Of a stretch of 49,808 nt of DNA, positions 24,565-49,808 are shown one piece after another. The notes beneath the pieces are model-generated. The model was not told the origin of the DNA. It worked only from the letters and a program-made list of their open reading frames with translations, and searched no databases. This DNA is from Candidatus Saccharimonadota bacterium. Lineage in GTDB: Bacteria; Patescibacteriota; Saccharimonadia; Saccharimonadales; Saccharimonadaceae. The position numbers and the translations under genes were made by a program. How positions within the stretch are numbered: the stretch's first letter is position 1; every line of letters starts with the position of its first letter. The stretch is taken from assembly GCA_017404685.1 (NCBI GenBank), contig JAFRBW010000007.1:1-49808 (forward strand), read 5' to 3'.

Positions 24565-26299
24565 TCATCTCCTTTCTATATTCCTCATCCGAGAGTTGTG
24601 ACTTCACGATCGACTGATAAACTTTACAAGCTCGAAGTAGTTCTTTATGCGTTCCTTTCCCCACCATCTTCCCTTTGTCCAGCACTATGATCTGGTCTGC
24701 ATCCTTAATCGTCGAAACTCTTTGCGCCACAATCAAGACCACCGCATCCTCCACGATCGGCTTAAGCGCCGCGCGCAGCTTCGCATCAGTTTTCATATCT
24801 AGCGCCGAGAACGCATCGTCAAACACAAAGATATCCGGTTTTTTGCAAATCGCCCGCGCGATCGAAAGCCTTTGTCTTTGTCCACCAGAAACATTCGTTC
24901 CGCCCTGCGCAATATGAGCGTCGTACCCGCCCGGCAGTTTTTCGATAAACTTCGCCGCCTGCGCCACTTCCGCCGCTTTTTGCACTTGCTCGTCCGTCGC
25001 ATTTGGCGCGCCAAACTTAATATTCGACTTCACCGTCCCAGCAAACAACACGCCTCTCTGCGGCACCAACCCAATTCTCGCCATCAAATCATCTTGCGAA
25101 TAATCCCGAATATTCAGCCCGTCAATCAAAATCTCCCCGCTCGTCGCTTCGTAAAACCTCGGCACCAGATTAATTAGCGTAGATTTTCCCGACCCAGTCG
25201 AGCCAATAAACGCCGTTGTTTTTCCTGCCTCCGCCTTAAACGAAATATCGTCTAGTACTTTCTCCGCCGCGTCCGGATATGCAAAGCTCACCTTAGAAAA
25301 CTCCACCGACGCTTTTTTCTCCGGCACGCCCCGCGTTTTCTTCACAAAATGTACTTTCGGATTCACTTTCAGAACCTCATTAATCCTCCCCGCCGACACA
25401 TTCGCCCTCGGAATCATGATGAAAAATAGCGACAGCATCAAGAACGACATCATCACAAACGTCACGTATTCGGAAAACGCCGTCATATTTCCAAGATAAG
25501 CAAAATCCTGGTTGAGCAGCGAAATCCCAATCCACGAGCAAAGCAACGTCGTGCCATTAAATATGATATTAATCAGCGGGTTCTGTAGCTCCAATACCCG
25601 ATCCACAAAAATCATCAGCCGCGTCAATTCTTCATTCGTGCGCGAAAACTTTTTCTGCTCGATTTTCTCATTATTAAACGCCCGAATCACTTTTAGTCCA
25701 GTCAGATTCTCGCGCGTAATTAAAGTCACGCGATCAATCAGCTTCTGGAAAATTTTAAACTTCGGCCCCACAATCGCCATGATTATCACCACCGAAATCA
25801 CCACCGCCGTGATCCCCACCACGATAATCCAACTCATTTCCGGCGCCGTTTGCACCGCCATCACGAGTCCCAGCACACAAAACAGCGGCGCACGCAGAAG
25901 CATCGACAGCATCATCGTTACTACCATTTGCACTTGGTTCACATCGTTCGTCGTCCGCGTAATCAAACTCGCCGTGCTATAATCTTTAATATCCGCCAGA
26001 TTAAAAGTCAAAACTTTCCGAAACACCGCCGCGCGCAAATCACGCGAAAAATACGCCCCCACTTTTGCCGAAAAATAGCTCGCAATAAACGCCGTCACCG
26101 CTGATAGGAGCGCAAGCCCCAGCATAAAAAGCCCATCTTTCCATACCGTATCCATCTGCCCCGGCACAATGCCATTATTGATAATATCCGCCATCAGCGC
26201 CGGTAGTTGCAACGTCGCATAAACTTGCCCACCAGTGGCAATCACCAATATCAAGACCTGCCACCAATATGGCTTCAAATACCGAAATAACTTAAACAT
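24551..26299 (-). CDS. ABC exporter, fused permease/ATPase (degenerate half, TM287-like)
   Basis: GSTGSGKS, SGGQRQ, FDD (degenerate Walker B) and AQR switch. Confidence 0.95.
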   Translation of the reverse strand: MFKLFRYLKPYWWQVLILVIATGGQVYATLQLPALMADIINNGIVPGQMDTVWKDGLFMLGLALLSAVTAFIASYFSAKVGAYFSRDLRAAVFRKVLTFNLADIKDYSTASLITRTTNDVNQVQMVVTMMLSMLLRAPLFCVLGLVMAVQTAPEMSWIIVVGITAVVISVVIIMAIVGPKFKIFQKLIDRVTLITRENLTGLKVIRAFNNEKIEQKKFSRTNEELTRLMIFVDRVLELQNPLINIIFNGTTLLCSWIGISLLNQDFAYLGNMTAFSEYVTFVMMSFLMLSLFFIMIPRANVSAGRINEVLKVNPKVHFVKKTRGVPEKKASVEFSKVSFAYPDAAEKVLDDISFKAEAGKTTAFIGSTGSGKSTLINLVPRFYEATSGEILIDGLNIRDYSQDDLMARIGLVPQRGVLFAGTVKSNIKFGAPNATDEQVQKAAEVAQAAKFIEKLPGGYDAHIAQGGTNVSGGQRQRLSIARAICKKPDIFVFDDAFSALDMKTDAKLRAALKPIVEDAVVLIVAQRVSTIKDADQIIVLDKGKMVGKGTHKELLRACKVYQSIVKSQLSDEEYRKEMNGAA

Positions 26300-26314
26300 A
26301 TATACTATTATACA

Positions 26315-28351
26315 CTATTTTTCCGCACAAATCGCATTTTTGAGATCAACCACAAGTCCAGTCGCAAGCAGGTAATGCTCTAGCGAGTCATATCGTCCGT
26401 CATTATATTTCCCCGTCGCAATTTCCGTCGCCGCTTCCACCCCCACGTACCGATAATGCCAGGTCTCAAATAGCCCCGTCGAACCATTTTCATCTACATT
26501 CAGTGGCTCGCTCATCGAGCCACCCGCCCATTCCTCCGGGAACCGATCAATAAACCCATACCGATACGAATTCGCCTTTAGCCATTGCCACTCCGGATGC
26601 GCCGCATAATCATCCGTATCAAGTTCCGTACCATAAGCCGTATCAATCAAATCACAAGTCAGCCCCGTGTGATGATCACTCTCGCCCGTTGCCGCGCAAA
26701 GCCGCCCGCAAGAAGTTCCTTTCATTCTAAAACAAGACCGCGTCCCCATCGTATGTCCAGGATTTTCCGCCGTGTAGGCTGCAAGCATTTCGTCAAGATG
26801 CTTTGCCGCTTCCTCGTCCATCAAATTATCGCCATTAGACGCTTTGAACTCCAAAATACCGTACGTTGCCGACACCGAAATCAGCTCCTCTTTCCGCGCC
26901 GCAATAAAATCATACTCCACCTTGAAATTCGGATTCACGAGCATGAGATAACCATACTTTTTCGTACAATTTTCTGTCGGTGCTTCCGTAACAGGGGTAA
27001 GATTAGCCAAAAAATCGCCCAAAGAATTCGTACTCGCATCATACTCCTCATCTTTTTCATCATACTCCGCGTCAAATGAATCATACTCCGCGTCCGAAAT
27101 CTCATCGCCAGCACTTTCACTAGTACCATCATCAGCCTTCTTCCAGCCAAAAAGATGCAGGAATCTTTCTACAAAACTCGGCTCGGCATTATATTCCCCA
27201 GCCTCCACAGGCACGGCCACATTCTCTCCCGCCAGCGTCAACTTTAGCACCCCATCCTTTCCATCCATCAAAAGCTCCACATTGCTATCCATATTTTCCC
27301 AAGTCACCGCTCCCGCCATGTCGGAAGATGTAATCTCCACTTTTCCAGTCCACCAGCTATCATAATACCCTACCACGTCGCCAGCCGCCACGAGCGGTGT
27401 TTCCGTAATCACTTCTTGCGCAGATTCAACAATTGAAAGCGAATCACTAAACGATTTTTCTCTCGTCGGCGCATTGAGAAGCGCCACCGTCACCACGCGC
27501 TCTTTCTCCATGTAGCCAGACACCAAACAATACCCAGACGGCTCGCCAATAAACCCAGTCTTCACGCCAATAATACCTTTCTCGCCGAGCAGTTTATTCG
27601 TGTTTTCTAGTGTCCCCGCCACCGGCACGTCGGCCGATTTAAGCCCCACAATTTCTCTAAGCACCGGATTCTCTAGCACCTTCGCACCGATCCGCGCCAA
27701 ATCCTCTGGCGTACTTGTTGTGCTCTCATCAAAACCGCTCGCATCCACGCCGATCGTCGTGTCTACTATTCCCCACTCGGACAACTTTTCCGTTGCGTAC
27801 TCGCGATAGTTATCAAGCGACCCAAAAGCCCAAATCGCCAACGTATCCGCCATGTTGTTGGACGACGGCAAAAACACACTAGAAAGCGCATCGTATTCCG
27901 AAATCTCTTCGCCAGTTTTCACGCGCGAATTTGAACCGCCATTTTTCACGTACCACAAATAACGACCATAGTCATCCTCAGAAATCGTAATCGTCTCGCC
28001 TTTTTCGCCGAGTGAAAACGGTTTTTCTTCCATCACCATCAGCCCCAGAATCATCTTTGCCGTACTAGCCGTGGGGCGCACTTTTGGCTCCATGAAATCC
28101 GCACCGGCTACCACTTCGCCATCCACTGCCACCGCCCAGGCCGCCTCGCTGATTCCATTTAGCGTCTCTAGGCTCTTCGCTTCCGGCAACTTATACGTCG
28201 TTACCACTAAAAGCTCCGCCTTTTGATTGACTAGCCCCACCGTCACAAAAGTCAAAAACGCCACCAAAATCCCAGTGCATGCAGCAACAATTCCAAACTT
28301 CACTGGATGCATCTTAATGCGTTTTCGGCTAATGAAGTTTTTTCGTATCAT
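26315..28351 (-). CDS. Fusion of serine D-Ala-D-Ala carboxypeptidase (S11) and VanY-like Zn DD-carboxypeptidase (M15B)
   Basis: STAK (SxxK), SSN and KTG; C-terminal SDHHTGLTCD, YGFIDRFP and ETWHYRYVG. Confidence 0.85.
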   Translation of the reverse strand: MIRKNFISRKRIKMHPVKFGIVAACTGILVAFLTFVTVGLVNQKAELLVVTTYKLPEAKSLETLNGISEAAWAVAVDGEVVAGADFMEPKVRPTASTAKMILGLMVMEEKPFSLGEKGETITISEDDYGRYLWYVKNGGSNSRVKTGEEISEYDALSSVFLPSSNNMADTLAIWAFGSLDNYREYATEKLSEWGIVDTTIGVDASGFDESTTSTPEDLARIGAKVLENPVLREIVGLKSADVPVAGTLENTNKLLGEKGIIGVKTGFIGEPSGYCLVSGYMEKERVVTVALLNAPTREKSFSDSLSIVESAQEVITETPLVAAGDVVGYYDSWWTGKVEITSSDMAGAVTWENMDSNVELLMDGKDGVLKLTLAGENVAVPVEAGEYNAEPSFVERFLHLFGWKKADDGTSESAGDEISDAEYDSFDAEYDEKDEEYDASTNSLGDFLANLTPVTEAPTENCTKKYGYLMLVNPNFKVEYDFIAARKEELISVSATYGILEFKASNGDNLMDEEAAKHLDEMLAAYTAENPGHTMGTRSCFRMKGTSCGRLCAATGESDHHTGLTCDLIDTAYGTELDTDDYAAHPEWQWLKANSYRYGFIDRFPEEWAGGSMSEPLNVDENGSTGLFETWHYRYVGVEAATEIATGKYNDGRYDSLEHYLLATGLVVDLKNAICAEK
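27038..27094. repeat. 3 x 21-bp in-frame tandem repeat (D[AE]EYD-x2)
   Basis: ATCATACTCC(T/G)C(A/G)TC at 27038, 27059 and 27080. Confidence 0.8.
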
Positions 28352-48495: not shown

Positions 48496-49065
48496 TCAGC
48501 TCGCATTCCGTGCCGTCACCATAAACTGCGCCAGCGCGCCAATCCCCGCCGTCCCCACCAGTATCGGCCAATAAAACACTGTGCGATCTATCTCTGCCAC
48601 AAAGAAGAACAGCGCCATAGTCAGGATATACGCCCCGATCAGCGAGGTTGTTAAAATCGTCGCCGGTTTCATCATCTTCACCGCAAGCGCCCCCAGTATC
48701 ACCCCCACCACGCCGCCAATCGCCAGCGTCATCCACTCCGTTCCAAAATATTGCACTGTCACCACCATCGTCGCCGCAAAAGTCAGCAAAGACACGCAAA
48801 TCTTCTCAATCGTAAACCCAAGCATCGCAAGTAGCAGCCCGCCCGCAATCGGGAGCAACACCTGCCACAATTGATTCCCCGCAATCTCCGGCACGGCATT
48901 ATTGATAGTCGGCATGAGAAACCCCATCAGCAGATATCCCACGATAAACCACGCCACAAAAAACCCGATTTTCTTCACCCGATACCCCGCAAAAAGCAGC
49001 AGCGCCCCCGCCACCATCAAGATAATTAGTTCCGTTGTATTGAATTGTGTGAGGTCTAGTTCCAT
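48496..49065 (-). CDS. DUF4203/TMEM198-like membrane protein
   Basis: LLFAGYR..K, about 7 Gly-rich TM helices, TSLIGAY and GALAQF. Start is ATG 49065. Confidence 0.75.
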   Translation of the reverse strand: MELDLTQFNTTELIILMVAGALLLFAGYRVKKIGFFVAWFIVGYLLMGFLMPTINNAVPEIAGNQLWQVLLPIAGGLLLAMLGFTIEKICVSLLTFAATMVVTVQYFGTEWMTLAIGGVVGVILGALAVKMMKPATILTTSLIGAYILTMALFFFVAEIDRTVFYWPILVGTAGIGALAQFMVTARNAS

Positions 49066-49099
49066 ATATATCATTATAGCACAAAATTTTCTTGCCAAG

Positions 49100-49128
49100 A
49101 AAAAGCCCTCAGTCGTTTGACCGAGGGC
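49100..49128 (-). terminator. Intrinsic terminator of the small ORF
   Basis: Minus strand GCCCTCGGTC-AAAC-GACTGAGGGC-TTTTT. Confidence 0.8.
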
Positions 49129-49136
49129 AAGGGTGC

Positions 49137-49274
49137 TTATTGCTGGTCCTCGAAATCTTCGTAGTTCGGACCTTTGTCCGAAAAAATAATCTTTATGATA
49201 TCGACGGTCCAGCTTCCGCCAAGAATGGCGGCGCAGAGGAAGAAAACACTAGCGGAAATAATAATAGCAGACAT
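49137..49274 (-). CDS. 45-aa small membrane protein (MSAIIISASVFFLCAAILGGSWTVDIIKIIFSDKGPNYEDFEDQQ)
   Basis: Read manually. It has an AGGAGG RBS, a consensus promoter at 49341-49369 and a terminator directly after the stop. Confidence 0.75.
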   Translation of the reverse strand: MSAIIISASVFFLCAAILGGSWTVDIIKIIFSDKGPNYEDFEDQQ

Positions 49275-49340
49275 GGGGAATCCTCCTTTTTATATATAAG
49301 CATTTTTATGTACGATAAGACTTTTTGCCTTATTAATTAC

Positions 49341-49369
49341 ATTATATCACACTTATGCTAAAATGTCAA
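49341..49369 (-). promoter_or_regulatory. Consensus sigma70 promoter for the small ORF
   Basis: TTGACA-17 nt (ending TGA)-TATAAT. Confidence 0.8.
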
Positions 49370-49425
49370 TAATAATATCATAATTACAGGGGTAAAATGA
49401 CCGCAATTTTTCTGCAAAAAAGTAC

Positions 49426-49454
49426 TTGCAAAGTCTCACAAAATGCGCTAAAAT
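49426..49454 (+). promoter_or_regulatory. Sigma70 promoter upstream of the structured region
   Basis: TTGCAA-17-TAAAAT. A second extended -10 (TGTTATAAT) lies at 49492-49500. Confidence 0.65.
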
Positions 49455-49460
49455 GTAATT

Positions 49461-49808
49461 ATTAACAATCAGCAAATTGTAGTCCGCGGGTTGTTATAAT
49501 TAAAAGAGATATGCAAATCAATTTTTGACAGTAGTAAAGGCGCCAAGAGGGCCTAGGCTGTCAAATGAGATTTCTCTTTGGCTAACCCGCGGACTACAAC
49601 CTCGTGGCGCCTTTTCTGTGGATTAGCAAAGTTGCCTCGAGAGTTAACAAAGAGAGGCAAGTAAAAATGCAGGTCATACAAAAAATCAAAGCAAAACTTA
49701 ACAATTCTCCACGTAGAGTTATTCTGGATACGCGCAAAAAATGCAGCAATAACTCTACGTGCAGGATTATTAATAACAGGACGGGTGACACGCATAGGGA
49801 GACCCCCA
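49461..49808 (+). ncRNA. Candidate highly structured RNA / 5' leader of unknown family (3'-truncated)
   Basis: 16-bp, 14/15-bp, 14-bp, 8-bp and 7-bp complementary segments, nested and crossed, downstream of a promoter. Confidence 0.6.
49667..49808 (+). CDS. Possible 3'-truncated ORF (MQVIQKIKAKLNNSPRRVILDTRKKCSNNSTCRIINNRTGDTHRETP...)
   Basis: Open to the window end with GAGG 9 nt upstream; no recognisable motif. Confidence 0.3.
   Translation, partial: MQVIQKIKAKLNNSPRRVILDTRKKCSNNSTCRIINNRTGDTHRETP

Follow-up and report, generated by a model that had tools for sequence, protein, structure and literature searches.

What is the long structured element at the right end of this stretch of DNA, and does it control the gene that follows it? 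The window (the whole 49,808 nt stretch that was analysed) is one complete contig, C27, of a Candidatus Saccharimonadota genome of 670 kb in 37 contigs. A first-pass annotation, made from the letters alone, had described an unrecognised RNA at 49461-49660 whose helices cross in the order A-B-A′-B′, and every pairing that it named is present and complementary as claimed: A (49477-49492) matches A′ (49584-49599) perfectly, B (49536-49550) matches B′ (49600-49614) at 14 of 15 positions, 49503-49509 and 49524-49531 are complementary to 49573-49579 and 49558-49565, respectively, and so are the members of the alternative pairs 49573-49580/49648-49655 and 49632-49638/49654-49660. The TTGCAA-17-TAAAAT promoter, a second extended −10 (TGTTATAAT, 49492-49500) and the ATG at 49667 also lie where it had placed them. 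Absent from that description were a U-tract 3′ of B′, local decoy pairings and a family of 21 copies in the genome (below). Table 1 lists the parts of this contig-end copy.

Table 1. Parts of the contig-end leader and the start of its gene, in window coordinates.
Feature	Position	Strand	Basis
Predicted sigma-70-type promoter, TTGCAA-17-TAAAAT	49426..49454	+	sequence
5′ extension 3′ of the predicted start, TATTAACAAT	49460..49469	+	common to 8/21 leaders
Segment A, P1 5′ strand	49477..49496 (core 49477-49492)	+	pairing, covariation
Inner helix 5′ strand, pairs with 49573-49578	49504..49509	+	fold; varies among copies
P2 5′ strand, pairs with 49557-49565 and closes the loop that holds B	49524..49532	+	compensatory strain changes, covariation
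Segment B, apical loop; predicted 5′ arm of terminator helix	49536..49550	+	pairing, covariation
P3 decoy strand, GCCT	49551..49554	+	pairs with 5′ half of B
P2 3′ strand	49557..49565	+	fold
Segment A′, P1 3′ strand	49579..49599 (core 49584-49599)	+	pairing
Segment B′, GC-rich, directly 3′ of A′; predicted 3′ terminator arm	49600..49615	+	pairing, covariation
U-tract TTTTCTGT, predicted termination site	49612..49619	+	U content of 21 copies
B″, downstream alternative partner of B′	49628..49641	+	hairpin of −16.5 kcal/mol
Shine-Dalgarno (SD) GAGG	49654..49657	+	sequence; anti-SD present at 16S 3′ end
Paralogous secreted surface-protein gene, 5′ end	49667..49808	+	truncated by contig end

The segment 49455-49670 folds at −72.6 kcal/mol (z = −5.56), and none of 200 shuffled sequences was equally stable. 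The P3 strand pairs with 49538-49541 and leaves the 3′ half of B as a small loop, and B″ in this copy overlaps the TTGCCTC that can pair with the SD. Is this one of the known RNAs? The first-pass annotation did not recognise it, and neither do the Rfam 15 covariance models: at E ≤ 10, positions 48800-49808 had 11 matches of chance level, none near its gathering score (the best 24.3 bits against a gathering score of 80), and 20 homologous loci gave only a tRNA and two chance matches. ARAGORN has no match in the window, and the exclusion of RNase P RNA and tmRNA agrees with the presence of the genome's housekeeping copies of both on contig C33.

Is the element peculiar to this locus? A descriptor that holds only the topology (A..B..A′B′, gap 0-2) gave 25 matches in the genome, namely 21 sense loci and 4 reverse-strand echoes that were dropped before counting; it gave no match in five whole-contig shuffles and two in five local 300-nt shuffles. 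A covariance model returned the identical 21 sense loci, plus 13 echoes on the antisense strand and a single match that is short and weak. All 21 copies lie between their own promoter and start codon on the same strand, and all precede members of two related sets of secreted proteins, which are paralogous surface-protein genes. The last 160 bases of the window recur on other contigs as the starts of paralogs (95-99% identity); the full-length downstream paralogs have 667-1024 aa, and the four that were scanned match Flg_new, Fib_succ_major or Lcl_C. The leader is absent from at least five more distant paralogs. For the gene cut off by the contig end, the first-pass annotation had offered either a surface protein or an RT/nuclease; the first is right (a paralog of the secreted Flg_new/Fib_succ_major proteins), and the second is not, the genome's RT belonging to a diversity-generating retroelement (DGR) on another contig.

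That DGR is intact (C30:25020-30093, − strand) and involves a leader-bearing paralog (the target gene in L031). Its parts are VR (27377-27519), TR (26893-27035), an Avd-like ORF (26132-26605) and RT (25020-26171); 25 of the 26 VR-TR differences fall at template adenines, and no other paralog matches TR. Several smaller observations concern the gene starts. The paralogs' shared 5′ coding sequence contains a long hairpin (49698-49773 here), and 49774-49808 belongs to variable in-frame palindromic insertions that are also found on contigs C22, C9 and C24. Within 49661-49808, other strains (runs X14 and X20) have different gene 5′ alleles behind the same leader, which suggests that gene bodies may be exchanged by way of the common 5′ sequence. 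At the opposite end of the contig, 40-2253 is the 3′ portion of a further paralog of this surface-protein family. Upstream of the leader are rplJ-rplL (names read from the translations), a TM7S3/TM198-like membrane gene and an opposite-strand 45-aa ORF; the latter (49137-49274, −) has a hydrophobic segment and no Pfam match, and a divergent promoter of perfect consensus stands before it at 49341-49369 (−).

The pairings are maintained while the sequences change. When 27 copies are aligned with MAFFT (21 of them from this genome, six from two relatives, with the structure drawn from the same sequences), 90% of cells pair, a value reached by none of 500 shuffles, and slid registers give about 40%. 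Both sides have changed in 14/14 pairs of P1, 8/8 of P2 and 13/17 of B:B′, whose 17 pairs are paired in 95% of cells, and in a 99-row model-fitted alignment P1 covaries in 16/16 pairs. At this same locus, strains in public assemblies retain A and B; their inner helices differ by two compensatory pairs (in P2, 49524/49565 and 49527/49562), three wobble-to-Watson-Crick changes and one gained pair, with indels nearby. The structured cis-regulatory RNA of A-B-A′-B′ topology that had been proposed is thus borne out by both-side changes in all three helices; the self-complementary hexamers that had been pointed out in A and B do occur here and, in the alignment, are peculiar to the contig-end copy.

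Do these helices act as RNA or as DNA? An element acting as DNA (repeats that invert, or a single-stranded site like the attC of integrons) would explain the long, near-perfect inverted repeats and why many copies begin TGCAAC and end GTTGCA, but it is largely refuted and hardly credible. G-U pairs are far commoner than A-C pairs (39 vs 4 in P1, 33 vs 9 in B:B′), and the excess in P1 indicates single-stranded pairing of the + strand; A is only 27% identical among copies past its first 5 nt; and the contigs of eight runs, which as contigs drop rare variants, have no inversion joints, a single low-likeness skip joint being regarded as spurious. The sense fold is the superior one in 165/166 copies. 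The integron attC core RYYYAAC ... GTTRRRY is present in 9/260 copies and was rejected, the copies lying upstream of genes and outside cassette arrays.

Where would such an RNA begin and end? P1 begins at a pyrimidine-purine step 6-7 nt past the −10 in 114 of 166 copies (T at 6 in 93% and G at 7 in 92% of these), which predicts a +1 G at the base of P1; 19 of the 166, including the contig-end copy, have a longer leader, and the remaining 33 are unclear. The second extended −10 is found in 1/166 copies and so is no family feature. In the longer leader of the contig-end copy stands TATTAACAAT, possibly a boxA-like or pause element; ATTAACAAT occurs 14 times genome-wide, 8 of them at the equivalent of 49460-49469, and the rRNA leader at the end of contig C33 has the resembling GTTTAACAAT. 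Similar words also occur 5′ of SD sequences, and NusB is encoded in the genome. The hairpin spans 99-184 nt and bears a side hairpin in 98/166 copies. B′ starts 0-2 nt past A′, a spacing that the descriptor requires, yet the model-found copies have it too. A weak B:B′ pair occurs at position 5-7 in 26/28 copies. All 21 genome copies, found without a sequence filter, have a U-tract 3′ of the GC arm with a mean of 5.9 U in 8 positions; the U-tract is poor in one copy, and several have just 3-4 leading U.

B and B′ also have other partners. The local P3 hairpin of B plus linker lies below −2 kcal/mol in 159/166 copies, a figure computed without a shuffle control. An upstream complement of B, B*, which could act as its decoy, is present in 48/94 copies of the broad type vs 6/166 of the contig-end copy's type, and the B″ hairpin has z < −2 in 112/151 copies of the latter type vs 26/94 of the former. 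Finally, the end of A′ and B′ can form a short local hairpin, T (GACACC-loop-GGUGUC), which in most homologs is a canonical terminator: it reaches −5 kcal/mol or better in 20/20 model-found broad-type copies and in 102/145 other copies, with compensatory insertions in two. Stable T has been lost from 11/21 genome copies, including the contig-end copy, and these keep B:B′ and the U-tract, so that B:B′ is the sole helix left abutting the U-tract.

At what level might control be exerted? The first-pass annotation had suggested a switch-like ribosome binding site; in a translational switch of this kind, alternative B′/B″ pairings would open or close the SD. In the contig-end copy the predicted SD access does fall, from 0.57 to 0.20, when B′ is blocked, but the effect is not family-wide: among 28 copies access drops by more than 0.1 in 5, the contig-end copy included, rises by at least 0.1 in 15, as the first bases of B′ are able to base-pair with GAGG, and is flat in 8. 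In 92 copies the distance from B′ to the start codon is 37-266 nt, and in the broad type the ORF begins a median of 39 nt past the U-tract and B″ is mostly absent, so that control at the ribosome binding site is hard to place. We consider a translational switch very improbable as the main device, though in this genus it might add a further layer of control. The U-tract, the variable start distance and the inconsistent SD effect together indicate transcriptional control, and the leader is probably a transcription attenuator, of one polarity or the other.

Does docking of B on B′ then stop transcription or permit it? We lean, at somewhat less than an even chance, to the reading that the P1-P2 loop of the attenuator cages B and that docking of B would end transcription. 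The copy number, gene linkage, covarying helices, strand, U-tract and promoter spacing are those observed above; the steps that follow are inferred. Transcription would begin at the base of P1 or at most about 25 nt before it; P2/P3 and then P1 would fold first, P1 also taking the 5′ arm of T. While the long P1-P2 hairpin holds B caged in its apical loop, polymerase would read through the U-tract. Alternatively, the exposed 3′ end of B would seed on the first bases of the emerging B′ and stack on P1, docking would pass the weak pair at 5-7 and displace P3 and the top of P2, and the resulting terminator helix against the U-tract would release an RNA of 130-150 nt. After read-through, B″ (or the SD region) would take up B′.

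Folding programs cannot score a pseudoknot, and B:B′ was examined in nested folds. The nested fold of the contig-end copy has −56.4 kcal/mol vs −37.5 kcal/mol with B:B′ formed. B:B′ is part of the minimum-energy nested fold in 4/165 full leaders vs 133/165 when A is blocked, and in the broad type in 1/94 unblocked copies vs 30/94 with 13 nt of A blocked; because B:B′ enters the fold mainly when A is blocked, the caging polarity was chosen over its opposite. P1 might nevertheless help docking rather than hinder it, and the tight A′/B′ junction fits coaxial stacking. On structural reasoning, two helices of more than one turn each are unlikely to form fully together unless P2 opens, and this near-exclusion of complete P1 and complete B:B′ fits a kinetic race.

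In the opposite polarity T would be the terminator and B, docking on the loop and 3′ arm of T, the antiterminator; the weak pair at 5-7 would then stall zipping until polymerase had passed the U-tract. We regard this as unlikely, while recognising that T is canonical and covarying in the broad type, that B does pair with the loop and 3′ arm of T, that the decoys B* and P3 would then be the OFF state, and that such a mechanism has been proposed for the guanidine-IV kissing loop (PMC11611296), which supplies a precedent. It is difficult to reconcile with the 11/21 copies that have no stable T and still retain the U-tract and B:B′ with compensatory changes, or with the reach of B pairing into the U-tract, as in the 5′ arms of terminators.

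What input could tip the attenuator with caged B? Most likely it is a diffusible cell-state signal (metabolite or protein), which we place at the P1-base/docking junction because no other part is conserved in sequence; the conserved positions are those of the P1 base, the ACC linker and the ends of B and B′, and multiple pairings may explain them. The genome encodes RelA/SpoT, NusB, one NusG and RNase III; searches of this genome, which is 93% complete, found no Rho, in keeping with the attenuator, and no GGDEF or DAC gene. No conserved uORF is present in 114 copies (putative uORF lengths scatter from 1 to more than 50 codons). Searches for trans partners of A, B and B′ gave longest matches of 10-14 nt, and shuffled controls for A were alike. 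One presumed-RNA run contains a single contig over 49565-49778, which is uninformative on expression.

Could the released RNA itself be the effector? As a stable sRNA the terminated leader might act in trans on its own or sister nascent leaders, giving a burst of expression after entry of a mobile element or a choice among adhesin paralogs. Its predicted 5′ end is sealed by P1, B′ is flanked by partners, as CI is by seqA and seqC (PMC4825925), the RNA leads the cargo in serine-recombinase elements and phage morons and twice precedes EcoRI-type methylases (below), and the B′ core is nearly identical over 13 copies of genome G154. We nonetheless think it rather improbable, since in this genome cognate B:B′ pairs have −21 to −31 kcal/mol vs median non-cognate values of −7 to −20, 9/21 copies have no non-cognate partner within 3 kcal/mol, no copy is established as free of a downstream gene, and no Rfam C4/CI model matches. 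It is also quite improbable that there is no switch and that the leader is a 5′ stabilizer, an RNase III processing site or a localization element of envelope-protein mRNAs: the stable hairpin (about −50 kcal/mol) placed at the predicted +1, the encoded RNase III and the early hydrophobic segments of the downstream ORFs (below) would suit such a role, which leaves the mutually exclusive partners (P3, B*, B″, T) and the U-tract unexplained.

How widely is the leader distributed? BLAST of 49380-49808 against 100 relatives gave only short matches, in 10 of them, so a structure model was required to find the family. Covariance model R1 found it in 77/151 genomes of the genus, many with at least 20 matches, and model R3 in 90/151; 28/29 new loci pass the two-helix descriptor even though the model lacked the B:B′ pairing, as do 19/20 further copies. 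Over the order, R3 has matches in 31/151 genomes at E ≤ 0.01, and 12 of 19 order and phylum loci inspected are real, while the weakest matches are chance; in the R1 order search 3 of 5 non-own matches are real and 2 false. Phylum searches gave mostly false matches below about 30 bits, and outside the order only G328 and G305 looked real. Genomes from other families mostly carry a single copy. GTDB contains at least 119 loci with a B+B′ pattern, 107/119 of which pass the descriptor, and among the matches listed 79/80 are titled Saccharibacteria or Ca. Nanosyncoccus and one Agathobaculum. The last (L176:540-800) is a complete copy with a typical gene start beside IS-like and TetR-like ORFs on a contig titled Agathobaculum sp., and may reflect contamination, co-culture or transfer.

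Among metagenomes, a pattern made up of just B and B′ retrieved at least 116 loci, 106 of them usable. P1 is present in 96 of these, a −10 (not included in the pattern) lies just upstream of P1 in 89, and an SD-led ORF follows in 82; a bias towards B, B′ and U is built into sets found by pattern. An early hydrophobic segment occurs in 65/82 of these ORFs vs 162/568 background ORFs of this genome, and of 47 downstream proteins scanned 15 match Pfam (among the matches Fib_succ_major, Flg_new, T4SS_pilin, OmpA, DUF4352, TIG and two EcoRI-type methylases), so the genes behind the leader are mostly those of membrane or secreted proteins. Three copies lie inside serine-recombinase elements, two of these with DUF5659, and the RNA faces the cargo. 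Small integrative elements of Saccharimonadales (L240, L241, L242, L256), where the cargo begins at the RNA, contain a serine recombinase, a primase or Rep, DUF5659, a winged-helix-like gene and membrane and type I RM cargo; one query for the winged-helix-like neighbour did not find it in this genome. Phage contigs contain three further copies, each followed by a small gene for a membrane-anchored product; one of these has a G5 domain. A first viral pattern gave no match, 3 of 4 matches of a second are real (L244 is a plain terminator), and a third gave 7 loci, of which 3 are on contigs already found and 4 are false on inspection; INPHARED phages gave one 21-nt chance match only. On contig L396 two tandem copies (296-431 and 775-908) lie about 480 nt apart, each before a short ORF.

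The leader is thus a real and widespread cis-regulatory RNA family of Saccharibacteria, apparently undescribed: we found no prior description in the open-access literature, and a clustering preprint (10.64898/2026.10.21.760802) is silent on it in its main text, while its 1.5 million clusters and supplements could contain it. By our models its mode of action would resemble that of transcriptional riboswitches with a kissing loop and of leader switches in phages, but it falls outside every family tested. Riboswitches of the guanidine-IV type (PMC11611296) likewise have a 5′ leader, a U-tract and an upstream loop complementary to part of the terminator. Unlike them, the present leader has no Rfam match, pairs B over 10-18 bp and into the U-tract, has a cage of 100-185 nt whose 5′ end is the predicted +1, and serves a surface-protein regulon. 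In c-di-GMP-II riboswitches a hairpin loop pairs just 3′ of P1, and multiple copies control surface genes; the present leader is alike in both respects, but it is longer, is free in the sequence of P1 and P2 and matches no Rfam model, and the genome has no detected GGDEF or DAC gene. The c-di-GMP-II structure combines a kink-turn with a pseudoknot, according to PMC9495366. P4 CI RNA/seqA-seqC and Gifsy-1 IsrK are, as outlined in PMC4825925, leaders on mobile elements with premature termination, a central segment partnered on both sides and short and long isoforms (predicted here). In contrast to these, the present leader faces cargo genes, away from the replication module, has partners that in this genome are idiosyncratic per copy, and lacks an Rfam match.

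UGGCACC, frequent in B, presumably resembles the T-box bulge, and TGGNACC occurs in 57/260 copies (5/21 in this genome). The T-box consensus GGTGGNACC / GGUGGNACC is found in 0/260, the genes are not amino-acid related, and Rfam has no match; T-box pairing and tRNA-3′-end mimicry were both rejected. Intrinsic terminators share the A-tract, GC stem and U-tract (phage contig L244 has a plain terminator with the same stem sequence), but here the loop is 45-60 nt and contains A′, and the element stands just past the promoter and before the gene. Antisense-RNA attenuators of the pT181/pIP501 type have a countertranscript promoter within the leader, whereas in a consensus scan antisense promoters are not in excess here (44 observed vs 56 expected of 166 copies).

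Living on other bacteria, Saccharibacteria rely on surface proteins. In many species the leader is a control element that some 20 adhesin-like genes of a genome have in common, a DGR-diversified one among them, and it is carried as well on Saccharibacteria islands and phages. In the proposed design the terminator is unusual, its 5′ arm being delivered from a hairpin loop 45-60 nt away. A more ambitious proposal, which at present we think unlikely, is a new Patescibacteria-specific riboswitch or riboregulator whose pseudoknot helix is the terminator, which senses host attachment and switches the surface repertoire between swarmer and attached cells; that repertoire would take in adhesins, T4SS-type pilins, phage morons and island cargo. 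A 2024 review (PMC11665869) calls the mechanisms of the attached/swarmer switch in Saccharibacteria completely unknown, and the leader offers a small handle on it that can be tested in vitro, as well as a possible native expression tool. As a separate matter, ARAGORN identified a tRNA-Ile with anticodon TAT, unusual in bacteria, at C29:9967-10043.
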